From Methanocaldococcus sp. FS406-22 (GTDB lineage Archaea > AGJL01 > Methanococci > Methanococcales > Methanocaldococcaceae): a stretch of DNA of 24,000 bases. The stretch covers positions 110,729 through 134,728 of the forward strand of contig NC_013887.1 in the NCBI RefSeq assembly GCF_000025525.1. The letters are read 5' to 3'. The notes below the pieces were generated by a model, which worked only from the letters and a program-made list of their open reading frames with translations, did no database searches and was not told where the DNA came from. The first letter of the stretch is position 1; each line of letters begins with the position of its first letter. Below, piece by piece: positions 3,638 through 15,033 of the stretch. A program made the position numbers and the translations under genes.

Positions 3638-3679
3638 TTTTTAGAATTACAGAAAATTTAACATAATTATTTTTTTGGT

Positions 3680-4618
3680 GTGATTATGAGAGTTGGGATC
3701 ACAGCAATAGTTCCACCTGAAATTATTTACTCAACCAATCATATTCCTTTGGATTTAAACAATTTTGTTCCCCAATCTAATGTACATCCTAAAAATAAAC
3801 TGTGTGCTTGGACTGCTTCATGGAGAGAGTTGATTTTAGAGGATAAAATTAAAATTAATAAATTAATTGTTGTTGCTGGAGGAGATTGTCAAAATTCCCT
3901 TGTTGATGCTGAAAAGATAGAATTGAAGAAAAAAATTCCTACGCATTATTTCTTTTATCAATTTGGAGATAAAGAACATTTTGAAAATGAAATAAAAAAA
4001 CTTATTGATTTTTTAGGAGGGGATGTTGATAAAGATATTTTAAGAGAAGTTTATAAAATAAAAAAACTTGCAAAAAAAGTTGATGAATTGTGCTATAAAG
4101 ATAAAATAAATGGGAAGGATGCATTTTATACCACAATTTCTGCAAGTGATTTAAAAGGAAACCCAAATGCATACAAAAAAGAGATTGAAAATTTATTAAA
4201 CAATGAGGAGAATGTTGAATATAGGTATAGAATTGCTTTAATTGGCATACCACCAATTTTTAGTGATTTTTATGAATATCTGAATGAAATAAATGTGCAT
4301 TGTGTTTATAACGAATTACCTTATGAGTTTGTGAGGATGGGAGGAGACTCAATAAAGAGTATAGTAGACACCTATTCAACATACACGTTTGCCAACCATA
4401 TAACTAAAAGAATAAAGATTATAAAGAGAGAATTAAAAAAGAGAAAGGTTGATGGAATAATCCACTATACACAAATGTGTTGTCATCATAAGTTAGAAGA
4501 TGAAATCCTCAGAGAATTTATTGATTACCCTATGCTGACAATAGAGGGAGATATTCCCCAAAAAACACCCGAACAAGTGAAGTTAAGAATAGAAGCATTT
4601 ATAGAGATGTTGGGATAG
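3680..4618 (+). CDS. 2-hydroxyacyl-CoA dehydratase (HgdB/HGD-D family)-like subunit, single copy
   Basis: 312 aa (GTG 3680 or ATG 3686). Overall HGD-D-like layout with conserved Cys positions (GGDCQNS; IHYTQMCCHHKLEDE). It is followed 2 nt later by a cognate-type activase gene. The family call is from motif recollection, not a search. Confidence 0.7.
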   Translation: MIMRVGITAIVPPEIIYSTNHIPLDLNNFVPQSNVHPKNKLCAWTASWRELILEDKIKINKLIVVAGGDCQNSLVDAEKIELKKKIPTHYFFYQFGDKEHFENEIKKLIDFLGGDVDKDILREVYKIKKLAKKVDELCYKDKINGKDAFYTTISASDLKGNPNAYKKEIENLLNNEENVEYRYRIALIGIPPIFSDFYEYLNEINVHCVYNELPYEFVRMGGDSIKSIVDTYSTYTFANHITKRIKIIKRELKKRKVDGIIHYTQMCCHHKLEDEILREFIDYPMLTIEGDIPQKTPEQVKLRIEAFIEMLG

Positions 4619-4620
4619 CT

Positions 4621-5301
4621 ATGATGGGTATTGACGTTGGCTCAACACACATAAAAATTGCGGATGGGAAAAGTTTTAAAAAATATCCAATAATTAAATT
4701 AAATGAAATATTAAAAAAGTACAATAACGATGATGTTTTTGCAACAGGATATTTTAGAAAGAGGTTTAAAAATCACATAACTGAAATTACTGCTGCTATA
4801 TATGGAGTTGATAAAGAAATTGATGTTATAATTGATGTTGGTGGGCAGGATACAAAGATAATAAACACAAAAACATTAGAGTTTGTGATGAATGATAAAT
4901 GTGGAGCGGGGACTGGATTATTTTTACAAACCATAGCTATGTATTTGAATGTCCCTATCGAAGATTTTGGTAAGTATTATTCAAAAGATCCCTTAAAGTT
5001 AAATAATACTTGTGCTGTTTTTTCGATTTCTGAAATCATCAATTATCTTGTAAATGGTTATAGCATTAAAGATATCATAGCATCTGTAAATTACACTATA
5101 GCAAAGAAAATAGCCAATATGAATCCATATGAATGTGAAACTATTGCTCTAATTGGTGGAGTAGCAGAGAATAAGGCATTTGTTAAGTATTTTAAAGAAG
5201 TTACTGAGAAAGACGTTTACATTCCTAAAAATCCACAGTTTATAAATGCAATAGGGGCGAGAAAATATGGAATTGAACACTCAGCAAAAAATAATCTTTG
5301 A
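4621..5301 (+). CDS. CoA-substrate-specific enzyme activase (HgdC/BcrAD_BadFG ATPase family)
   Basis: 226 aa. ASKHA phosphate motifs GIDVGSTHIKI and DVGGQDTKII, adenosine motif IGGVAEN, and the two cluster-bridging Cys contexts of HgdC-type activases (MNDKCGAGTG and NNTCAVFSISE). Confidence 0.85.
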   Translation: MMGIDVGSTHIKIADGKSFKKYPIIKLNEILKKYNNDDVFATGYFRKRFKNHITEITAAIYGVDKEIDVIIDVGGQDTKIINTKTLEFVMNDKCGAGTGLFLQTIAMYLNVPIEDFGKYYSKDPLKLNNTCAVFSISEIINYLVNGYSIKDIIASVNYTIAKKIANMNPYECETIALIGGVAENKAFVKYFKEVTEKDVYIPKNPQFINAIGARKYGIEHSAKNNL

Positions 5302-5839
5302 AATTTATGATTTGTATAAGAGATTTGAGTTGATGATAAATAACAATAGAAGCAAAACCAAAAAACAAATAGAAAAGATTAAAAATGAAATTATAGTTAA
5401 GGATATTAATGATGTTAGTTATGTTGATAGGGTTCAGGAAATTTTGTTGAATTATAGAGAGATTTGGGGTTTTGTTCATAAATCATCAATAAAACAGTGG
5501 ATTACAACTTCTAAAACTATAAGTGTAGCTGGAATGTTTCATAAAGACAATTTAATTGGGGTTATGGTTTATGGGGAAAAACCAAGTTACCTCAAAATTA
5601 ATTATATTGCAGTTAATAAAAGATTCAAAGACAATTCCCTTGGAGGATATTTTATCTCATTTTTAGAGAAAAAAGCTAAAAAATTACAAAAGAAGAAAAT
5701 ATATGCTGAAGTTCCAGGAGATAATGAGGGAGGATTGGGATTCTTCATAAAAAATGGATTTATAATTGAGGGTATTTTGAAAAATCATACAAGAGGTGGT
5801 AAAGATTTAGTATTAATGGCTAAATATTTAGAGGGATAA
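5267..5839 (+). CDS. GNAT-family N-acetyltransferase with ~70-aa N-terminal extension
   Basis: 190 aa. GNAT motif A region INYIAVNKRFKDNSLGGYFISFLEKKAKK and C-terminal FFIKNGF. The track start overlaps the activase by 35 nt, and the alternative ATG at 5333 (MINNNRS) would remove the overlap. The stop lies 2 nt before the next ATG. Confidence 0.7.
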   Translation: MELNTQQKIIFEIYDLYKRFELMINNNRSKTKKQIEKIKNEIIVKDINDVSYVDRVQEILLNYREIWGFVHKSSIKQWITTSKTISVAGMFHKDNLIGVMVYGEKPSYLKINYIAVNKRFKDNSLGGYFISFLEKKAKKLQKKKIYAEVPGDNEGGLGFFIKNGFIIEGILKNHTRGGKDLVLMAKYLEG

Positions 5840-5841
5840 AC

Positions 5842-6768
5842 ATGGTAGAATTTTTTGCATCATTAACGATTTCTGCAGGAGAAATTAAAAAAATGGTTGA
5901 ACTTTTAAAGAAACATGAACCAAAAAAATGGGTTTTTGAAAATGTGATTTTTACACCTTTGGTTTCATCGGAAAGTACTATAAAAGAAATTAGAAATTTA
6001 AAGAGAAAGTATAAAACCACTGTTATGTTTGATAGTGGAGGTTATTATGTTCAACAAGAAAAATTTGAAATATCTCAACTATTCTCGTTTTTAAGGGAAT
6101 TTTATAGAACTAATAAATGGGGAGATTGGTATGTCTTACCAGATTCTCCACCAGTTTCCTCTGATGCTGTAGATACTGCCTGGGGTAAAGTTTATGAAAC
6201 TGTATATTTTGCGAAAAGTTTTGCTGAAGAATTTAATGGGAAGATGGAGAAAAAGTTTATCCCTGTTGTTCAGGGCGTTAATAGGGATATGATTCATTAT
6301 TGTGTTAAAAATTATGCTGATTTAAATGTTAGAAGAATTGGCTTTGGAAGTTTTGGAACTTGTGGGAAAAGGAATCAAATTAATAGACTTACAAAAGACA
6401 GTTTAGAAAATCTAAGATATTTATCCAGGTTAGCAAAAGAATATGGATTCGAGTTGCATGCCTTTGGTATTGGTGGGGGAAGTTCTGTAAATAAAATTAG
6501 GGATTATGTAGATAGCTTCGATAGTAGTAGTTGGGATAAAGCAGGGGGATTTGGGGATATATTTTTCCCAAATTCAAGAACTATTAATATAACTGGAAAA
6601 TCTCCAAGAACTTCTTCAAAAAATTATATTGGATATAAGTACCTAATTGAAAAATTTAGAAATGGGCATAAATGTTACTTTTGTGAAGATTTAAGTAAGT
6701 TAAAAGAGTATAAAATATATAGATCTTTACATAATATTATAGTATTGTATGAAATGGTGAAAGAATGA
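5842..6768 (+). CDS. Minimal tRNA-guanine-transglycosylase-fold protein (DpdA-like candidate DNA/RNA base-exchange enzyme)
   Basis: 308 aa. TGT landmarks occur in the canonical order: MFDSGGYY (6025-6048; TGT DSGGFQ), VLPDSP, IPVVQGV (TGT GIVQGG), IGFGSFG, HAFGIGG, DSFDSSSW (Asp at 6520-6522 aligns with the catalytic MFDCV Asp), and HKCYFC...19 aa...LHN (6667-6684; TGT Zn site CxCxxC...H). There are no PUA or C-terminal tRNA-recognition domains. Confidence 0.75.
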   Translation: MVEFFASLTISAGEIKKMVELLKKHEPKKWVFENVIFTPLVSSESTIKEIRNLKRKYKTTVMFDSGGYYVQQEKFEISQLFSFLREFYRTNKWGDWYVLPDSPPVSSDAVDTAWGKVYETVYFAKSFAEEFNGKMEKKFIPVVQGVNRDMIHYCVKNYADLNVRRIGFGSFGTCGKRNQINRLTKDSLENLRYLSRLAKEYGFELHAFGIGGGSSVNKIRDYVDSFDSSSWDKAGGFGDIFFPNSRTINITGKSPRTSSKNYIGYKYLIEKFRNGHKCYFCEDLSKLKEYKIYRSLHNIIVLYEMVKE

Positions 6769-7505
6769 AAGGGAGTTACCATATTCAGCATAATGCTAAA
6801 CCAGAAATTATAAGGAAACTAATTGAATATAACCCAAATGCCAAAAAATCAGAACTAAAAAAAGCATTTCCTGAGATAAAATCAAGTATAATTGATGATA
6901 ATTATACAATTATGAACAAACTCATAAACGTTAAAGATAAAAATGAAATTGAAAATATTTTAAAGATGGATGATGAAATGTTCAATAACTACCTCCATTA
7001 TAAGCTTTACTCATCTAAACTACCAATTGGATGGTCTTACAGGTGCGTAATAAACATATTGTATGAAGAATATAATGGTAAAAAAATTAACTATAATGAT
7101 ATTGAACAAAAAGTTAAAGAAAAAGCGTTTGATGAAGAGCTAGGAGGAATATCATTTAGTAGTAATAGCGTTCGTGGGGCGATTAACTTTATAAGGTCTT
7201 TATCCCCTTCACCAATTGACGATAATAACGTTTTCAATCTTAGAGATTATTGTCAGCCACATCTATTATTGTGGGGGGTGGACTATCTTTATAAAAAACA
7301 GTGGGGAGAAGACTATGGATCATTAATGCTTTTGGATGAGGAGAAAGTTGAAGAACTTTCTAAATTTTGTTTAATTAAAGATGATATATTAGATGATTAC
7401 CTAAAAGAACTTGATTTTATGTATGATTTTGTCGAAATATCTATAAAAGCGTTTGGAAGATATGTGAGATTGAAAAGAACATGGAATTTTAGTGATATTT
7501 TATAA
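6765..7505 (+). CDS. Hypothetical protein (246 aa), no family recognised
   Basis: Its ATG overlaps the upstream stop (ATGA at 6765-6768), giving good coding continuity in the operon. I cannot place any motif with confidence. LPIGWSYR is only vaguely reminiscent of the FPLRYGW motif I associate with DUF4007. Confidence 0.55.
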   Translation: MKGSYHIQHNAKPEIIRKLIEYNPNAKKSELKKAFPEIKSSIIDDNYTIMNKLINVKDKNEIENILKMDDEMFNNYLHYKLYSSKLPIGWSYRCVINILYEEYNGKKINYNDIEQKVKEKAFDEELGGISFSSNSVRGAINFIRSLSPSPIDDNNVFNLRDYCQPHLLLWGVDYLYKKQWGEDYGSLMLLDEEKVEELSKFCLIKDDILDDYLKELDFMYDFVEISIKAFGRYVRLKRTWNFSDIL

Positions 7506-7518
7506 AAGGGGGAGGGGT

Positions 7519-8028
7519 ATGGATTACATTACACTAATAAATTACATAAAGAGAAATTATTCCTCTAAATTCTTAACTGATAGTCAAAAGGAAGCATATA
7601 ACAAATTAAAAAAATTTCTTTTATTTGATAATGTTGTAAATCTTTATGGAAAAAGTGGGGTTGGAAAAACGTTTTTAGGATGGGTGTTTGCAAAAGATAA
7701 TAACTTTATTTATTTTAAAACTGAAGAAGAGTTCAAAAAATACAAAACAACAAGAAAAATGAATGTAATTATTGATAATGGTGAACTAAATGATGGAAGA
7801 AATATTAGGAGGTTAATTTCTCTAAAGGCAAATAAGGCAATTTATATTTCAAAAGGAGAAACTTTAGATTACAGTGTAAAGCTAACATTGAACTGGCGTG
7901 ATGTTGAACATGTTTTAGAGAATATCTCTCCAATTATTGAGAAAAATAAAAATATATATATTGACAACTTTTTTGATAGTGATTTAAATTTATGGAAAGT
8001 ATTTAAGGTGATGACATATGGATATTAG
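7519..8028 (+). CDS. Small P-loop NTPase (169 aa)
   Basis: Walker A GKSGVGKT (7648-7671) and a Walker-B-like hhhhD in NVIIDNG. I prefer the ATG at 7519, preceded by GGGGGAGGGG (7508-7517), over the track start 7492, which overlaps the previous gene. Confidence 0.65.
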   Translation: MDYITLINYIKRNYSSKFLTDSQKEAYNKLKKFLLFDNVVNLYGKSGVGKTFLGWVFAKDNNFIYFKTEEEFKKYKTTRKMNVIIDNGELNDGRNIRRLISLKANKAIYISKGETLDYSVKLTLNWRDVEHVLENISPIIEKNKNIYIDNFFDSDLNLWKVFKVMTYGY

Positions 8029-11000
8029 CTTATTGGAATACATAATAAATAAGAGTCCTGTTATAGACACCTATTCTGCTGAAAACTTAATAAATGAACC
8101 AAATTTAGTTGTGGATAAATATGAAAGCCACTTAAAAACATATATAAAGGTTGATGATGAGGAATTTGATAAAAGATTTATAAGGGAAATTAAAAAAGGA
8201 AAAACAGTAAAAGGCTATATTTCAGCTCCTTATGGTTATGGAAAGACAAGTAAAGCCTTGAGTTTGTGGGATTATTGTAAGAAAAATAACATCCTTGCAA
8301 TTCCTCCATTTAAATTCGATGGAAAACTTGATACAATAATGGATGCAGTTTATGGTTGGACAAGATATGTTTACAAACTTAAATATCCTGAGTATTTAGA
8401 CAAAATTGAGAAAATTTATAGAAAATATAAGGGTCTAAGTATAGAAAAAGAAATTGAATATTTAATGAAAAATAGAAATTTAACGGAAAATGAAGCTAAA
8501 GAGATAGTTTATGATCTTTTAAATAGGGGGAAATTAATTGTATCAATTACACCAAAAGATCTAATGAATTTCTTAAAGGAAATGAATGAAATCATAAAAG
8601 AACATTTTGAAGGTATGGCAATTTTCGTTGATGAAGTTCAGGGAATAAAAAATATGGAAATTATAAATAACTTAAGAAACTTTATTTTTGAGTTAAGCAT
8701 TAACAACATAGGTTTAGGTATTTTGTTTATAATTCCTGATTATCAGGAGGAAGATTTAAACATAAGAGCTGGAGATCTAATTGATAGACTACGAAAAGAT
8801 GGATTTTATTTAAATTTAGTAAATATATATAGTGTCAATTTCGCAGAGGACTTATGGAAAAAATACGGAGAACTTTTACAATTTAACCCCTATGATATCA
8901 TAACAGAAGATTGTTTAAGAAGTATTGGAGAGATATCATCAAGAGAAGATTTAGGAAAAGGTCCAAGAACAGTTATAGGAGCGTTTAAATGTGCATGTAT
9001 GAAATATAAAGAGAAATTTGAACCATATACAGTGTTTGATTTTATTAATGATATCTTAAATGGAGAGATTAAGTTTATACACCAAAAGTTTTTAGATGCT
9101 TTAAATGAAGGACTATCATTAAAGAAAGTTGATTCAGACAAAAAGAGAAAGGTTATTAAACTTGTAGGAGCATTTCCAAGAGGAATTTCCGAAGAAAAAA
9201 TAAAAGATTATGGATTATATGATGAATACGAGGAATTGTCAAGATTTTACTATGGAACAGAAATCGTTTATGCACTTGAAGGATATACTCTAAAAGGTCT
9301 TCTAAAAGGTGAAACAGCTACATATGTTGAACAGCATATAAGAAAATTTAGAAGCATATTTAATGAGTCTTGGGAAGGAGAAATGATTGACGCATTCATA
9401 ACTTATATATTACCTGAGATATTTCCAAGGAAAAAAGGAAGTCAAATCATGGGTTGGAGAATAGATGAAAAGTATCCTATAGTTGGGGGGTATTATCACC
9501 AATTAACAGGAACATTTAATCCGAAATATCCATTTAGAACTATTGGAGTTTATTCCTTACGATATGATACTAACGAAAAGGAGAATACATTGGTAGATGT
9601 TGAATTTAGGTTTATATTAGATAAAAACTGTAAGAATAATGATTTAGTTATTGATTATAGAAATGGCGAAGTAATTTTTAGATTTAATGTTTTAAAGAAA
9701 GTTGGAGAAGATAAACTTCCAGGAGATCTGAAAAAACTCCAACAATATGTTAAACCGCAAGAAGTAACCCCAATGTTTATGCTATGTCTATTAAATTATT
9801 TTGACAAGATAAAAGAAAAAGAAGATGAATATGCAAAGCATGAAAGTGAGATTAATGCACTAAAATCAATTCTAATAAGATATTTGAAGAGATTTTTGTT
9901 TTCTGATGATTTGGTAGAGAAATATAATTTAAGAAAACGACAGGAAAAAATCGTTGAAGAAGTATTTAACAGAATTTGTGAATATAAATTTAGAGATTAC
10001 AGCACACTAATACATTCCCCTAACTGGCATAAAGATTTGGAGAGATATAGAATTTTATTAAATTCATTATCAATTTCGAAAAGAAGAGGAGAAGAATTTG
10101 AAACCACTAAAAAGAAATTGGTTTCTATATTAACAGGTAGTAAAAATCCAAATGTTGCAGGATTTAAAGAAGAATGTGAATACGGTAAGTGGAAGGATTT
10201 AATTAATTTAAAACATTGGGGAAAAGATGAAAAAATTAGAGTAGAGTTGAAGAAACATCCACTTGAAGAAATGATATTAAAAGAATTTATTGAAAAGTGG
10301 ATACAGCCAATAAGTGTTGATGAAATAGTTAGTTATGGAATGAGTTTAGGATACATCCCAGAAGAAGTTGAAGAAATTTTAAAAATCCTTGAGAGTAGAA
10401 GATACATTGAAATTAACAAGGGATATGTCTTCAAATCTAGAGAAATAACAAATACTGATGTTCTAAATAAATTTGATGAAGTAGAAAATCTTGCAAAAAA
10501 AGTAGTGACTCTCTATATGAAGTATGGGAAAAACGTTCCTAACATACTTGTTAAACATTCAAAAAGAGAAGAGATCAAACAACAAACTGATCCTGATTTG
10601 TTATATAAAGAGCTAGAAATTATTGAGAGTTGGGAGAAGTCATTAAAGGAATATCTTAAAACTATAGAGAATGAAATAAAAAATGATAAAGAAGAATTGA
10701 TAAATAAAGTGCTAAAAATAGGGGAAAAAATAGATGACCTGAAAAATAAAATAGATAACATAAAAGAAGAGATTATTAAAACTCACTATTCATTGGGAGG
10801 AATCGTCAGGCATTTGGAAGAGCAAATAAAAATAACAAAAAAGAAATGCAACAAAATATCAAAAGATCTACTAATACTGAAAGAAAAAATAAATTCTACA
10901 AGAGATCTTGAACCTCTTGCTGAATGTCTAAATGAAGCAAAGAAAACATTTAAAAATCTGAATTATGAGTATGAGGATGTTCTTACAAAATACAATAAAT

Positions 11001-11818
11001 TTAAATCATGGTTAGGGATTTTAAGAAAATTGGAAGAATTATATGAAAAAATTGATGTTTATAGAGATTATATTGACATCAAAGAAGAACATGATAAATT
11101 CAATGAATTGATAGAAGATATAATCCAAGGATTTGCAAGAGAAGGGGCAGATTATTTAGATATGGATAGAGACGTAGAAGAGGACATAAAGTTAATAGAC
11201 GAGAATATAAAGAAAAAAGAAAGAAATCTAAGAAATGAATTTAATAAGATACAAGAAGAAATAAGAACGAAAATGAATATATTAGCTCAAACGTTAAAAC
11301 CATTGAACATTCAGCATTATTCATATAGGGAAGCATTCAGTATTGAAGATAGAGAGACAGCATATCAAAATCTAGTAAGAAATGTAAAATCATATATAAA
11401 AGAAGTTGTAGATAAGTTAAATGATCAAGTTAATCATCTAAAAGCAGAAGTTGAACTTAGATTAAATAATAATGAAAACTATATCTCTAAATTGAAAGCA
11501 ATAGGAGAAGAAGTAGAGAATATAGATATCGAAGTTATAGATAAAGACAACTTAATGGAATCTGTTGAAGAAATAAAATCCAAAATACTTGATATTTGGG
11601 AAAATTTAGAAAAAGTTAGAAAAGAAATAAAAAGAGAGATCATTGAAAGAAGTAAATCAGAAAAATCTGAGGAAGAAATAAAAATAATTGAAATATTAAA
11701 CAAATATGGTGAGATACCAATTGAAAAACTCTCAAAATATTTAAATATGGATATTGAGGGGACTTTAAAATGGTTATTAAAAATGGAAAATGTAGAAATA
11801 ATTGTAAGGAAGAAATAA
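8018..11818 (+). CDS. Large P-loop ATPase, BrxC/PglY (DUF499)-like, with C-terminal coiled coil and putative winged-helix modules
   Basis: 1266 aa. Walker A APYGYGKTS (8225-8251) and Walker B IFVDE (8621-8635). Size and N-terminal ATPase placement match BrxC/PglY. About 10590-11650 is extremely K/E/I/N/L-rich with a heptad-like pattern. wHTH-like stretches are PISVDEIVSYGMSLGYIPEEVEEILKILESRRYIEINKGYVF and the C-terminal IIEILNKYGEIPIEKLSKYLNMDIEGTLKWLLKMENVEII. The ATG is preceded by GGTGAT. The family call is inferred. Confidence 0.6.
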   Translation: MDISLLEYIINKSPVIDTYSAENLINEPNLVVDKYESHLKTYIKVDDEEFDKRFIREIKKGKTVKGYISAPYGYGKTSKALSLWDYCKKNNILAIPPFKFDGKLDTIMDAVYGWTRYVYKLKYPEYLDKIEKIYRKYKGLSIEKEIEYLMKNRNLTENEAKEIVYDLLNRGKLIVSITPKDLMNFLKEMNEIIKEHFEGMAIFVDEVQGIKNMEIINNLRNFIFELSINNIGLGILFIIPDYQEEDLNIRAGDLIDRLRKDGFYLNLVNIYSVNFAEDLWKKYGELLQFNPYDIITEDCLRSIGEISSREDLGKGPRTVIGAFKCACMKYKEKFEPYTVFDFINDILNGEIKFIHQKFLDALNEGLSLKKVDSDKKRKVIKLVGAFPRGISEEKIKDYGLYDEYEELSRFYYGTEIVYALEGYTLKGLLKGETATYVEQHIRKFRSIFNESWEGEMIDAFITYILPEIFPRKKGSQIMGWRIDEKYPIVGGYYHQLTGTFNPKYPFRTIGVYSLRYDTNEKENTLVDVEFRFILDKNCKNNDLVIDYRNGEVIFRFNVLKKVGEDKLPGDLKKLQQYVKPQEVTPMFMLCLLNYFDKIKEKEDEYAKHESEINALKSILIRYLKRFLFSDDLVEKYNLRKRQEKIVEEVFNRICEYKFRDYSTLIHSPNWHKDLERYRILLNSLSISKRRGEEFETTKKKLVSILTGSKNPNVAGFKEECEYGKWKDLINLKHWGKDEKIRVELKKHPLEEMILKEFIEKWIQPISVDEIVSYGMSLGYIPEEVEEILKILESRRYIEINKGYVFKSREITNTDVLNKFDEVENLAKKVVTLYMKYGKNVPNILVKHSKREEIKQQTDPDLLYKELEIIESWEKSLKEYLKTIENEIKNDKEELINKVLKIGEKIDDLKNKIDNIKEEIIKTHYSLGGIVRHLEEQIKITKKKCNKISKDLLILKEKINSTRDLEPLAECLNEAKKTFKNLNYEYEDVLTKYNKFKSWLGILRKLEELYEKIDVYRDYIDIKEEHDKFNELIEDIIQGFAREGADYLDMDRDVEEDIKLIDENIKKKERNLRNEFNKIQEEIRTKMNILAQTLKPLNIQHYSYREAFSIEDRETAYQNLVRNVKSYIKEVVDKLNDQVNHLKAEVELRLNNNENYISKLKAIGEEVENIDIEVIDKDNLMESVEEIKSKILDIWENLEKVRKEIKREIIERSKSEKSEEEIKIIEILNKYGEIPIEKLSKYLNMDIEGTLKWLLKMENVEIIVRKK

Positions 11819-12720
11819 AGAAAATAAAAACTCCTTGTTACTTGAAAATAAAACATAAACTTTCTCTTCTATTTTTTGATTTTGAAGAAATATCTTATGA
11901 TGATTTTTGGAGTATGATTGATGATCCAAATATTGAAATTGAATATAAGAAGTACGTAATATTGGACAAATTTGATGATCGACTACCAATTTATGAAATA
12001 GATCATAATCCTTTTACAGGGGAATTAAATAAAATCTTGAAAGAAAAATATCATCTAATTGAAAATTATATCAAGACACAAAAAGATGTTAAAGAGATTA
12101 TAATCTCTAAAGTAAACAAAAGAACTCCAAAAACAGTTGTTTTATATTTAATAGATGGGTTATCTTATGTTGATTATGTCGAAGCACAAATTCCTTATGA
12201 AGGAGAACCAATATTCGTTAATGGAGAAACATCAACTAAAAATGGTTTAATGAATATCATTTATGGAAAAAATAACATTCCAATTGCAAAAGAGCTCCAA
12301 AAATTTGGATATAGGTGCTTTGGACAGACATATTGGAATAGGAAAAATGAACTAACAGATATTTTGTTTAGATATTTTAATGAAAAATACATTTTTCACA
12401 GTGATGAAGAAATCTACAATGTAATAAATAAATACAGATCATCAAAAAAATATATCCAGATATATAGGGGAGGGTTGGATGAGTATGCACATAAATTGAG
12501 AGACATTAGTAAAAAATCCATAATTAACAAAATAAAAGAGATATTTGAAGATATAAATAAGCTAAATGATATTTTAAATAACATAAAAGAACCATATTTA
12601 GTCGTAATTACTTCAGATCATGGTATAAAGTGGAATTTTGAAGATCCTCATAAAAAAGGCAACCATAAAGAACTTACATTTGAAACGTGTTTTGTGCCTT
12701 TAATTATAATTGAGGGATAG
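11770..12720 (+). CDS. PglZ-type alkaline-phosphatase-superfamily protein
   Basis: Metal and nucleophile landmarks occur in PglZ order: VVLYLIDGLSY (Asp 12154-12156), ETSTKNGLMNIIYG, GGLDEYAH, VVITSDHG (12610-12624). The track start 11770 overlaps the previous ORF by 49 nt. An in-frame TTG at 11842 (MKIKHKL...) is the more likely start. Confidence 0.7.
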   Translation: MVIKNGKCRNNCKEEIKKIKTPCYLKIKHKLSLLFFDFEEISYDDFWSMIDDPNIEIEYKKYVILDKFDDRLPIYEIDHNPFTGELNKILKEKYHLIENYIKTQKDVKEIIISKVNKRTPKTVVLYLIDGLSYVDYVEAQIPYEGEPIFVNGETSTKNGLMNIIYGKNNIPIAKELQKFGYRCFGQTYWNRKNELTDILFRYFNEKYIFHSDEEIYNVINKYRSSKKYIQIYRGGLDEYAHKLRDISKKSIINKIKEIFEDINKLNDILNNIKEPYLVVITSDHGIKWNFEDPHKKGNHKELTFETCFVPLIIIEG

Positions 12721-12721
12721 T

Positions 12722-13882
12722 ATGCTATTCATAGGAAGAGAAAAGCTAAAAGACAGATTAGGCAATGATATTTATATAGATGCCTCAAAATCCCATGCAA
12801 TTTTTATTTGTGGTAAAAGAGGTAGTGGGAAGAGTTACACATTGGGAGTTTTAGTCGAAGAACTTCAAGAAAAGTATCCAGATTATTTAAAAATTATTAT
12901 CGATCCAATGGGGATATTTTGGACTATGGTAGAACCAAATGAAGAACAAGAAGAAGAACTTTGGGATTGGAATTTGTATGCTGAAGGATATCCAGTTAAA
13001 CTAATAGTTCCCGGAGAAATAGAGGAAAGGTTTGATGAAGATGTTATAAGAGAGTTAGAAAATAGGGGAATAGAGTTTAAAAAACTTCTTTTAAATCCTT
13101 CTGATATCTCAGCAGAGGGGTGGTGTGATTTATTCAATTTAAATATAAACGAAATGATGGGAATAGCCTTGTATAGAGCAATTGATAATATTGAGAAAGA
13201 TTTTTTCACAATAGACGATATTATTTATGAGGTTGAAAGAGATACAAAATCAAAGGAATCTACAAAAGAAGCATTAATAAATCGTCTAAACATGGCAAAA
13301 AAATGGGGAATTTTTTCAGATGAATACATCCCAATAGAAGATATTTTTGAAAGAAATGCAATAAATGTAATTGATTTAAGTGTTATTGAAAGCGGAAGAT
13401 ATGGACTGAGAGATTTAATAGTATCGATAATTGCAAAATATTTATTTAATCAACGATTGAAAGCAAGAAAAAAAGAAATGCTAAATTTACAATCAAAAAT
13501 GCCAAAAGTTTGGTTATTTATTGATGAAGCCCATAATTTCATCCCTTCTGGGAAATCAACATTATCAAAAGAGATTCTAATAAGATGGGCAAAGGAGGGA
13601 AGACAACCAGGATTGAACTTAGTTATAGCTACTCAACAACCATCAGCAATAGATAATGAAGTTTTAAGCCAATGCGACATCATCTTTGCACATAAAGTAA
13701 CAAATAGAGAGGATATAAATGCATTAAATAAGCTCAATCAAGAGTATATGGGAAAAGAGTTAAAAGTATATATTAAAGATCTAAATAAAGGAGAGTGTGT
13801 TTTTATTGATGATGAAAAAGAATTCTTAAAAATTATAAAAATAAGGCCAAGAAAAAGTAAACATGGAGGAGGAGAGAAGTAA
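12722..13882 (+). CDS. HerA/FtsK-superfamily ATPase (DUF87-like core)
   Basis: Walker A GKRGSGKSYT (12812-12841), Walker B VWLFIDEAHNF (13508-13540), then GLNLVIATQQPSAIDNEVLSQCD, typical of HerA/VirB4-like ATPases. The ATG at 12722 is preceded by GAGGGA and lies 1 nt after the upstream stop. The track start is a TTG at 12710. Confidence 0.8.
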   Translation: MLFIGREKLKDRLGNDIYIDASKSHAIFICGKRGSGKSYTLGVLVEELQEKYPDYLKIIIDPMGIFWTMVEPNEEQEEELWDWNLYAEGYPVKLIVPGEIEERFDEDVIRELENRGIEFKKLLLNPSDISAEGWCDLFNLNINEMMGIALYRAIDNIEKDFFTIDDIIYEVERDTKSKESTKEALINRLNMAKKWGIFSDEYIPIEDIFERNAINVIDLSVIESGRYGLRDLIVSIIAKYLFNQRLKARKKEMLNLQSKMPKVWLFIDEAHNFIPSGKSTLSKEILIRWAKEGRQPGLNLVIATQQPSAIDNEVLSQCDIIFAHKVTNREDINALNKLNQEYMGKELKVYIKDLNKGECVFIDDEKEFLKIIKIRPRKSKHGGGEK

Positions 13883-13938: not shown

Positions 13939-15033
13939 ATGAAATTCTTCAATAGAGAGAAAGAAATCAAAGAAATTTTATCAATCTTAGAGGGAGAGCC
14001 AAATTTAATTTATTTTATCTACGGCTCTATAAATTCTGGTAAAACTACATTAATAAAACATATCATAGAAAATAGACTAAATGATAATTACAAAGTTTTC
14101 TACATTAATTTCAGAACCTACTTAATATCAGAAAAGAGGGAGTTTATTGAAGCTATTTTCACCACTAAAAAAGATGATTTCTTTGAAAAAATAAAGGATA
14201 AATCAGAGGTTTTAAATTTGATAACCAAAGGAGCTAAGATTCTAACTGGTATTCCAATTCCTGAGATTGAATTTGATAAGTTATTTGAAGAGAAGATAAA
14301 CGATGTTTTTCAGTATTTAAACAGTTTATTGTTAGCGGTTAAAAAGAGTGGGAAAAAGCCAATCCTAATATTAGATGAATTACAAATGATTAAAGATGTT
14401 GTGTTAAATGGGCAGAAATATTTATTAAAAGAGCTATTTCAATTTTTAGTATCTTTAACAAAGGAACAACATCTATGCCATGTTTTTTGTCTAAGTTCTG
14501 ATAGCTTGTTTATTGAGTATGTTTATAACGCTGGAGAGTTAGAAGGAAGAGCTGATTATATTTTAGTGGATGATTTTGATAAACAAACTGCTTTAAAGTT
14601 TATTGATTTCTTAGCAAGGGAGAATAATATGGAACTTTCTGATGAGGATAAGGAATTAATCTACTCTTATGTTGGTGGAAAGCCAATTTTAATAATAAAG
14701 GTATTTGATAAGCTAAAAACAGAAAGAAAATTAAAAGATATTTTAGATACTATACTTAAAGAAGAAGCACAAAAATTAAGATACTTTTTAAAAGATCTGG
14801 ACTATATAAAACCAAAAGTTAATATTGAAGATGAAGTTATTGAAATTAAAAAAGAAGACATAATTGAGGCGTTAAGATTGTTTAAAGATAACTATGAAAT
14901 TAGCGATGATAAAATTCCAAAACCAGTTTATATTTATTTAATTAAAAGAAACATTTTATTCTTAGACCCTATTGAAGGGACTCTAAAACCGCAATCATTT
15001 TTAATCTGGAATGCGATAAAAAGGATTTTATAA
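13939..15033 (+). CDS. Archaeal ATPase family protein (Arch_ATPase/PF01637-like)
   Basis: 364 aa. [12 protein letters not shown]... N-terminus, Walker [10 protein letters not shown] (14023-14049) and Walker B ILILDELQ. It resembles the multi-copy M. jannaschii archaeal ATPase paralog family, and by position is probably the MJ0147 counterpart (from memory). GGTGAT precedes the ATG. Confidence 0.85.

Follow-up and report, generated by a model that had tools for sequence, protein, structure and literature searches.

The window analysed here is a stretch of 24,000 nucleotides from Methanocaldococcus sp. FS406-22 (contig NC_013887.1, positions 110,729 to 134,728), a genome (G000) of 1.77 Mb with about 29% G+C, and the subject is a pair of adjacent genes in it that encode a protein of the HGD-D family and an HgdC-type ATP-dependent activase. 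The two genes stand at the 5' end of a nine-gene island, the other members of which correspond to BREX-Related Capture (BRC), a predicted defence system. On comparative sequence evidence the pair is proposed, with a probability of roughly 0.55, to be an ATP-driven iron-sulfur (Fe-S) substitute for QueF, converting preQ0 (7-cyano-7-deazaguanine) to preQ1 (7-aminomethyl-7-deazaguanine) and feeding the DNA-marking module formed by the GNAT acetyltransferase and the TGT-like transglycosylase of the island. A more far-reaching version, in which this archaeal counterpart of QueF makes preQ1 for a bacterial-type queuosine pathway widespread in ANME, Methanoperedens, Methanocellales and Thermoplasmata, has been captured by defence islands of methanogens without QueF and, together with the GNAT and the DpdA-like enzyme, writes N-acetyl-7-aminomethyl-7-deazaguanine in DNA, is put forward only tentatively. 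The gene families, folds, conserved motifs, synteny and phylogenetic profiles described below are direct observations.

The first protein of the pair belongs to the HGD-D superfamily, matching PF06050 with 111.3 bits (cut-off 28.4) over residues 10-311. A preliminary description of the window had read it as an HgdB-like subunit of 312 residues; the family holds, and the start is probably ATG 3686 rather than GTG 3680, because the homologues begin with M(K/R)VGIT and are about 310 residues long. A Shine-Dalgarno-like GGTG (3678-3681) precedes this ATG. The AlphaFold2 model (pLDDT 93.9, pTM 0.91) has the fold of two Rossmann-like domains, with Foldseek query TM-scores of 0.82 to 3o3m_B, 0.81 to 8s02_B and 0.80 to 6eno, that is, 0.80-0.82 to HadC, BzdO and the double-cubane cluster protein (DCCP). 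Residues C42, C70, C268, H269 and H270 are invariant among 18 homologues, in an alignment with a mean column identity of 61%, and C268 aligns with the cluster cysteine in the FC(D/Q)P motif of HadC and DCCP.

The second protein, an ATPase of the BcrAD_BadFG type, matches TIGR00241 with 137.6 bits (cut-off 125.4), carries the N-terminal ASKHA phosphate-1 motif, GIDVGST, at residues 3-9 and, as the preliminary description had noted, has both cluster-cysteine contexts, CGAGTG and CAVF. It aligns with HadI (4eht, 5.5e-29) and with the DCCP reductase DCCP-R (7yyl_E, 4e-24), keeping both cysteines of the bridging cluster, and is 20-40 residues shorter than HadI and HgdC owing to a shortened N-domain. 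Activases of the HgdC type inject low-potential electrons into partners of the 2-hydroxyacyl-CoA dehydratase and benzoyl-CoA reductase type, and the modelled fold and the motifs of the pair fit an activase-dependent reductase. The fold and the activase type are common to HadBC/HadI, HgdAB/HgdC, the class I benzoyl-CoA reductases and DCCP/DCCP-R, the last of which also resembles the pair in its two-gene arrangement. The known HGD-D enzymes are, however, 370-420 residues long, whereas the island protein has about 310 and is encoded by a single gene instead of an alpha/beta pair; moreover, its genomic context points to a nucleobase, in contrast to the CoA thioesters of the dehydratases and benzoyl-CoA reductases.

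Two more specific identities were considered and rejected. DCCP is defined by a seven-cysteine motif, six cysteines of which ligate an [8Fe-9S] cluster (PMC7317905), and the island protein, with its smaller set of invariant cysteines, reaches 46 bits with NF040772 against a cut-off of 350. A canonical HgdAB/HadBC heterodimer was dismissed on finding that the island, like 81 related loci, has just one HGD-D gene. Since both the double-cubane cysteine set and a paralogous partner subunit are missing, the HGD-D protein would be expected to act as a homodimer with a [4Fe-4S] cluster held by three cysteines, leaving one open iron site, and to receive electrons from the activase in an ATP-consuming step. 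Elsewhere the genome has just one further HGD-D gene, about 90 kb away (G000:C1:203738-204751) and about 30-34% identical to the island copy; it is of canonical length (a frame of 380 residues, PF06050 at 411 bits) and is present in most Methanococcales.

Outside the island, the family of about 310 residues gives more than 600 database matches, in Methanosarcinales, ANME-2, Methanoperedens, Methanocellales, Hydrothermarchaeota and Thermoplasmata. Among the 81 related loci the orthologous activase lies directly 3' of HGD-D in 69, and BRC genes accompany it in 5, the other 76 being free of them. Neighbour clustering revealed 14 loci from three classes (Methanosarcinales/ANME-2, Methanocellales and Thermoplasmata) in which Tgt and/or QueA stand divergently and immediately beside HGD-D. 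This Tgt is a bona fide bacterial-type enzyme (TIGR00430, 460 bits) and QueA matches NF001140 with 434 bits. By gene neighbourhood, HGD-D and its activase are a two-gene module separate from the GNAT and, where BRC is missing, tied to queuosine synthesis. As regards the other surroundings of the pair, about 18 loci of the Methanoperedens type (L045-L101) have the GTP cyclohydrolase MptA (TIGR00294, 459 bits) on the same strand, about 1.0-1.9 kb upstream of HGD-D, and in eight Methanoperedens loci a class II tRNA synthetase of the Asp/Asn type (AspRS) lies downstream; in M. nitroreducens the two genes are apart, the activase being on a different contig. The other recurrent neighbours, a PNPOx-like protein and small membrane proteins, were uninformative.

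The distribution of the pair was compared with that of the queuosine genes in 201 genomes of Methanosarcinia, 151 of Thermoplasmata and 41 of Methanococcales. Among the Methanosarcinia, HGD-D is present in 14 genomes and QueA in 13, all 13 being HGD-D-positive; the sole HGD-D genome without QueA is Methanosarcina barkeri 3, which is also the sole genome with the BRC TGT. The QueA-positive genomes have QueH in 13 of 13 cases and QueF in one. Among the Thermoplasmata, all nine HGD-D-positive genomes give a QueA match, and the 39 genomes with full-length QueA comprise 8 with HGD-D only, 23 with QueF only, none with both and 8 with neither. Five pair-carrying genomes from Thermoplasmata, Methanomassiliicoccales, Methanocellales, ANME-2 and Methanoperedens all possess QueH, and neither QueF nor a full QueG was found in them. 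QueA needs, and acts on, the aminomethyl group of preQ1, so that the conversion of preQ0 to preQ1 is the sole step left without an enzyme in the pair-carrying queuosine genomes that lack QueF. The complementary occurrence of HGD-D and QueF is the pattern that would be expected of a non-orthologous replacement of QueF.

The hosts of the island extend this picture. QueF (PF14489) was found in none of the 41 Methanococcales, the genome of the window included, nor in M. barkeri 3, Methanosarcina sp. UBA7 or Methanothermococcus sp. Ax23. The genome of the window encodes QueC (238 bits) and so makes preQ0; no QueA was found in it, and the BRC hosts that carry the pair are without both QueF and QueA. 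In the samples searched, the pair always occurs either with a queuosine pathway devoid of QueF, the metagenome-assembled genome G243 being the sole exception, or with a BRC island in a host without QueF. A broader observation from the same searches is how common queuosine genes of the bacterial type are among archaea, with QueA matches in 62 of the 151 Thermoplasmata and 13 of the 201 Methanosarcinia. The Thermoplasmata also harbour a second, divergent QueA-like group (about 200-240 bits), and several genomes with it give sub-threshold QueF-like matches of about 22 bits in open reading frames (ORFs) of about 190 residues.

BRC was described as a predicted system of seven components in 45 taxa, comprising PglZ, a BrxC-like DUF6079 ATPase, a STAND NTPase, DUF4007 and HerA, with a GNAT and a TGT in a subset (Rakesh & Krishnan, Nucleic Acids Res 2026, PMC12839542). 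By their content, genes 5267-13882 are a BRC island with all seven components, and searches with the proteins of the window recovered the order from TGT to HerA in dozens of bacterial-type and metagenome loci as well as in M. barkeri. The terms HGD-D, activase and hydroxyglutaryl are not mentioned in the BRC paper or in those of its supplements that were examined (PMC12839542). The GNAT is already a listed part of BRC and the pair is an undescribed add-on; what is new here is the reading of the pair, the BRC identity of genes 5267-13882 being of a kind already published. In contrast to BRC as published, the archaeal islands add this two-gene module, which lies 5' of the BRC genes in Methanococcales and 3' of them in Methanosarcina. 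In M. barkeri 3 and Methanosarcina sp. UBA7 the order is GNAT, TGT and the other BRC genes up to HerA, followed by HGD-D and the activase. Maximum-likelihood analysis places the BRC-linked HGD-D proteins in two separate, well-supported clades, requiring at least two label changes, and the Methanosarcina clade nests in a well-supported group of queuosine-linked sequences; the two clades argue for at least two recruitments of HGD-D into BRC. The pair was not found in bacterial-type BRC loci (0 of 10 informative on both sides, 0 of 27 upstream, 0 of 17 downstream) nor in six annotated bacterial BRC loci, and a search of the 151 Thermoplasmata with the BRC TGT profile gave nothing.

The nine-gene block is kept in four other Methanococcales genomes (G008, G011, G012 and G023), with 60-96% protein identity; G023 is Methanothermococcus sp. 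Ax23, from another genus than the genome of the window. In the five genomes the block occupies at least three chromosomal sites, beside cbf5 in some and elsewhere in others. Of the 41 Methanococcales genomes, five have an intact HGD-D gene, and these five and no others have the TGT-like gene; the preliminary description had proposed comparative genomics to see whether the trio and the TGT-like gene co-occur. It had also envisaged the trio of HGD-D, activase and GNAT conserved beside cbf5 in relatives lacking 5842-13882, and no relative with an intact trio at that place and without the remaining island was found among the 41 genomes. What does occur there, in two genomes from different Methanococcales families, is a 5' remnant of HGD-D of 45-64 residues just after cbf5 (L019, G013:C1, about 10453-10624; L020, G019:C69, 5901-6092), one with an in-frame TGA and the other ending at the contig edge; in the assembly of the latter the TGT-like gene was not found elsewhere. 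These remnants look like the scar of an island lost from an ancestral cbf5 site.

The genes at the head of the block are closely packed. The four consecutive ORFs on the forward strand (3680-4618, 4621-5301, 5267-5839 and 5842-6768) are separated, in order, by a gap of 2 nucleotides, an overlap of 35 and a gap of 2, in agreement with the tight arrangement ahead of the TGT-like gene first reported. The GNAT stop codon (5837-5839) does lie 2 nucleotides before the TGT-like ATG at 5842, a Shine-Dalgarno-like GAGGG precedes this ATG within the 3' end of the GNAT gene, and a scan of the junction for a terminator-like hairpin, which would have separated the trio from the TGT-like gene, found none. 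Operon continuity was judged from spacing alone. Upstream, the stretch between cbf5 and HGD-D may hold the promoter of the island and the terminator of cbf5; the island must be able to start its own transcription, because in G008 it is not beside cbf5.

The core of the proposed modification module is formed by the GNAT and TGT-like proteins. The GNAT matches PF00583 with 28.4 bits (cut-off 20.7), has an additional N-terminal extension of about 45 residues and aligns with GNATs from M. barkeri and from bacterial BRC loci. The region of its acetyl-CoA motif (R/Q-x-x-G-x-G/A) reads K-D-N-S-L-G-G, the last glycine alone being invariant across BRC GNATs. The TGT-like protein has the motifs FDSGGY and FDSSSW and an HxCxxC...H site, with D64, D227, C278, C281 and H297 invariant. 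In its AlphaFold2 model (pLDDT 86.9) all 50 listed Foldseek matches are of the TGT family, including DpdA (7ui4), and profile matches were obtained to 1iq8 and 7ui4, the Pfam TGT match being sub-threshold at 19 bits. By modelled fold, catalytic aspartate motifs and zinc site, the gene is a member of the TGT/DpdA superfamily. In every locus inspected, whether archaeal, bacterial or viral, a GNAT adjoins the member of this TGT family or is fused to it. Three viral contigs carry the TGT family, with the GNAT adjacent or fused in the two scanned (L192 and L194), and the HGD-D subfamily was found on no viral contig, these three included.

The GNAT and the TGT family also occur outside BRC as a minimal pair, on the IMG/VR contig L194 (3953-5130) and at L186 (10001-14396) and L188 (9525-10999). 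In one case they belong to a viral replication module with a DNA polymerase III beta subunit, an SNF2 helicase and a Cas4-like nuclease, and in the other cases their neighbour is an HNH/ScoMcrA-type nuclease or a family-B DNA polymerase. On the metagenome contig Ga0256840_1002973 (L108, 7771-8709) a TGT-like gene that shares 71% identity with that of the window lies without GNAT, HGD-D or BRC genes, near a phage-integrase-like fragment and a helix-turn-helix protein of 691 residues, which may indicate a mobile-element context.

From these observations we infer which substrate the pair uses, in which direction the reaction runs, what accepts the acetyl group and that the base serves as a self mark. 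Genes 3686-5301 would encode a two-component reductase in which the activase injects low-potential electrons into an HGD-D protein with a three-cysteine [4Fe-4S] site, and the nitrile of preQ0 would be reduced there, giving preQ1 with its aminomethyl group. The pair would serve bacterial-type queuosine synthesis through Tgt, QueA and QueH in ANME-2, Methanoperedens, Methanocellales and part of the Thermoplasmata. In Methanocaldococcus, Methanothermococcus and Methanosarcina, which make preQ0 for archaeosine and have neither QueF nor a queuosine pathway, the pair has been built into the BRC island, where it would give the modification module a preQ1 source of its own. The target of the GNAT would be the aminomethyl group of preQ1, whether prior to insertion or once inserted; the TGT-like enzyme would put the modified base in place of guanine in DNA, and dPreQ1 or N-acetyl-dPreQ1 would be the self mark for the BrxC/PglZ/HerA restriction part.

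GNATs acylate amines, and preQ1 has a primary amine whereas preQ0 has none. An acetylated preQ1 mark is a natural prediction by analogy, because phages methylate or formylate this same amine. Phages in fact combine QueF, a preQ1-inserting DpdA, and DpdM (methyl) or DpdN (formyl) acting on it (PMC10516641). The phage pathways share with the island a three-part logic of reductase, DpdA-type (DpdA2) insertion and transferase on the aminomethyl group (PMC10516641). They differ in using QueF where the island has HGD-D and its activase, and the transferase of the island is a GNAT with a predicted acetyl product, which is not mentioned in that work; furthermore, the phage module is an anti-restriction kit, whereas that of the island would belong to cellular defence. 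With QueF (PF14489) the pair would share the reaction and a position ahead of Tgt and QueA in the pathway, and its distribution in QueA-positive Thermoplasmata is complementary to that of QueF. The two have no relation in sequence or fold, QueF being an NADPH-dependent T-fold enzyme that works through a covalent thioimide, in contrast to an Fe-S protein with an ATP-hydrolysing electron injector, and the pair, unlike QueF, would be oxygen-sensitive and ATP-consuming.

Several points weigh against the proposed preQ0 reductase. To our knowledge, nitrile reduction by a cluster of the HGD-D type has no precedent, and the protein has three invariant cysteines as against the six or seven of double-cubane proteins. 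A full-text literature search found no experiment on this HGD-D subfamily and no link between it and 7-deazaguanines. Genomes within a class are related, so that the counts overstate independence, as does the one-sided Fisher p of 2e-4 for the exclusion of HGD-D and QueF among the 39 Thermoplasmata with full-length QueA, which is to be taken as a guide. The Methanosarcinia genome G243 has both HGD-D and QueF; eight QueA-positive Thermoplasmata have neither, and therefore preQ1 salvage or another route exists; and no close activase orthologue was found in the Thermoplasmata genomes G041 and G042. A supposed FolE2 beside the pair in Methanoperedens, considered as a link to 7-deazaguanines, was discarded once NCBIfam identified it as MptA, an enzyme of methanopterin synthesis and hence unspecific. 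Finally, the BRC paper proposes dPreQ0 as the likely mark (PMC12839542); it also reports that homologues of DpdB and DpdC are missing from BRC loci.

The alternative that survives best keeps the chemistry and moves it into the polymer: the TGT would insert preQ0, the pair would reduce it in the DNA of BRC hosts or at tRNA position 34 of the archaea with queuosine, and the GNAT would acetylate in situ. The phylogenetic profiles fit this sequence of events as well as reduction of the free base, and fusions of GNAT and TGT fit modification on DNA. Moreover, the characterised bacterial DpdA enzymes all insert preQ0, and DpdM has been proposed to act on preQ1 in DNA (PMC10516641). Reduction within the polymer is nevertheless judged unlikely, since the Tgt beside the pair is a normal bacterial-type enzyme (TIGR00430 equivalog) with preQ1 as its usual substrate, and the compact two-domain HGD-D protein has no recognisable nucleic-acid-binding domain in the Pfam scan or the model.

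It is somewhat less probable still that the pair catalyses another 7-deazaguanine step, as a third type of epoxyqueuosine reductase, a reductase for a different derivative, or some other tailoring enzyme in the island. Such a role would draw on the removal of oxygen functions known from the family (2-hydroxyacyl-CoA dehydratases), and the Tgt/QueA neighbourhood and the co-occurrence speak for membership of the pathway and do not tell which step is involved. Yet the pair and QueF, not QueH, are mutually exclusive, and QueH covers the epoxide step in all pair-carrying queuosine genomes (5 of 5 and 13 of 13); an epoxyqueuosine reductase was set aside on finding QueH in every genome checked, and BRC hosts without QueA would have no epoxyqueuosine to reduce.

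There is likewise little to recommend a defence role unrelated to the base, in which the pair would reduce or activate an Fe-S or redox component, or sense redox state, its link to queuosine being a different use. Activase-type ATPases are general electron injectors (PMC7317905), and most BRC loci work without the pair. In Pfam scans, however, the other BRC components have no recognisable Fe-S motifs, and such a role leaves unexplained both the exact complementarity with QueF and why, among BRC islands, the pair is confined to those of hosts devoid of QueF.

That the pair is a passenger metabolic cassette merely sharing the insertion, without functional tie to the TGT and PglZ genes, as the preliminary description had considered, is very improbable: the family is free of BRC in 76 of 81 loci and most BRC loci lack the pair, but in Methanococcales it accompanies the TGT-like gene without exception (5 of 5 against 0 of 36), the genes are tightly spaced or overlapping, the block moves as one, the pair is kept at the opposite island end in Methanosarcina from a different HGD-D clade, and these hosts have no copy of it outside the island. 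The other suggestion made there, a base-tailoring trio producing a reduced and/or acetylated 7-deazaguanine, agrees with the queuosine linkage and the QueF exclusion, so that comparative genomics largely favours tailoring; the trio is not one unit, though, as the GNAT belongs with the TGT.

Should the pair indeed be a preQ0 reductase, one branch of the widespread HGD-D and activase pairs would gain a physiological substrate, biology would have a second, unrelated route from nitrile to amine, and the gap in many archaeal genomes with Tgt, QueA and QueH and without QueF would be filled. In place of dPreQ0, the predicted BRC mark would be a base derived from preQ1 and probably acetylated, which would explain why a GNAT always accompanies this TGT family, and N-acetyl-7-aminomethyl-7-deazaguanine would be a DNA base not yet described.

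Table 1. Features of the island and of the stretch preceding it (window positions).
Feature	Position	Strand	Basis
Intergenic stretch, cbf5 stop to HGD-D start	3638..3685	+	A/T-rich, oligo-T runs (sequence reading)
HGD-D family Fe-S protein, about 310 residues; proposed catalytic component	3686..4618	+	PF06050, 111 bits
HgdC/HadI/DCCP-R-type ATP-dependent electron-transfer activase, 226 residues	4621..5301	+	TIGR00241, 137.6 bits
GNAT acetyltransferase, 190 residues; BRC GNAT component	5267..5839	+	PF00583, 28.4 bits
Stand-alone TGT-fold transglycosylase (DpdA-like); BRC TGT component	5842..6768	+	Motifs, fold match, profile matches
BrxA-like/DUF4007-type BRC component, 246 residues	6765..7505	+	Directly 3' of TGT gene in 61/80 metagenome loci
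Small P-loop (STAND/BrxB-like) NTPase	7492..8028	+	Weak P-loop Pfam matches; position kept in 52/80 loci
BrxC-like (DUF6079-type) ATPase, 1266 residues	8018..11818	+	Position kept in 49/80 loci
Short PglZ-like protein	11770..12720	+	Weak STM4013/PglZ-type match; position kept in 33/80 loci
HerA/FtsK-type ATPase, final gene of block	12710..13882	+	PF01935 at 1.4e-13

Regarding the remaining genes of the island (Table 1), the name BrxA-like/DUF4007-type is taken from PMC12839542, and the homologue of the BrxC-like ATPase in L190 gives a faint BrxC_BrxD match in Pfam. The final gene matches HerA at 2e-28 and mad8 at 6.5e-26 in PADLOC and shares 85-96% identity with its counterparts in the four other Methanococcales islands; in the PADLOC scan this HerA gene alone was matched, the HGD-D/activase/GNAT trio giving no match. 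In the Methanothermococcus island (L018, G023) four extra ORFs on the same strand (8513-12857, minus strand; 749, 215, 195 and 290 residues) lie between the BrxA-like and P-loop genes, and the one of 290 residues encodes a RAMP-superfamily protein (PF03787, 70.7 bits). Beyond the island, between it and GTP cyclohydrolase III, the window holds at 13939-15033 an MJ1010-like archaeal ATPase (PF01637, 238 bits), which in G011 is reduced to short fragments at the same position.

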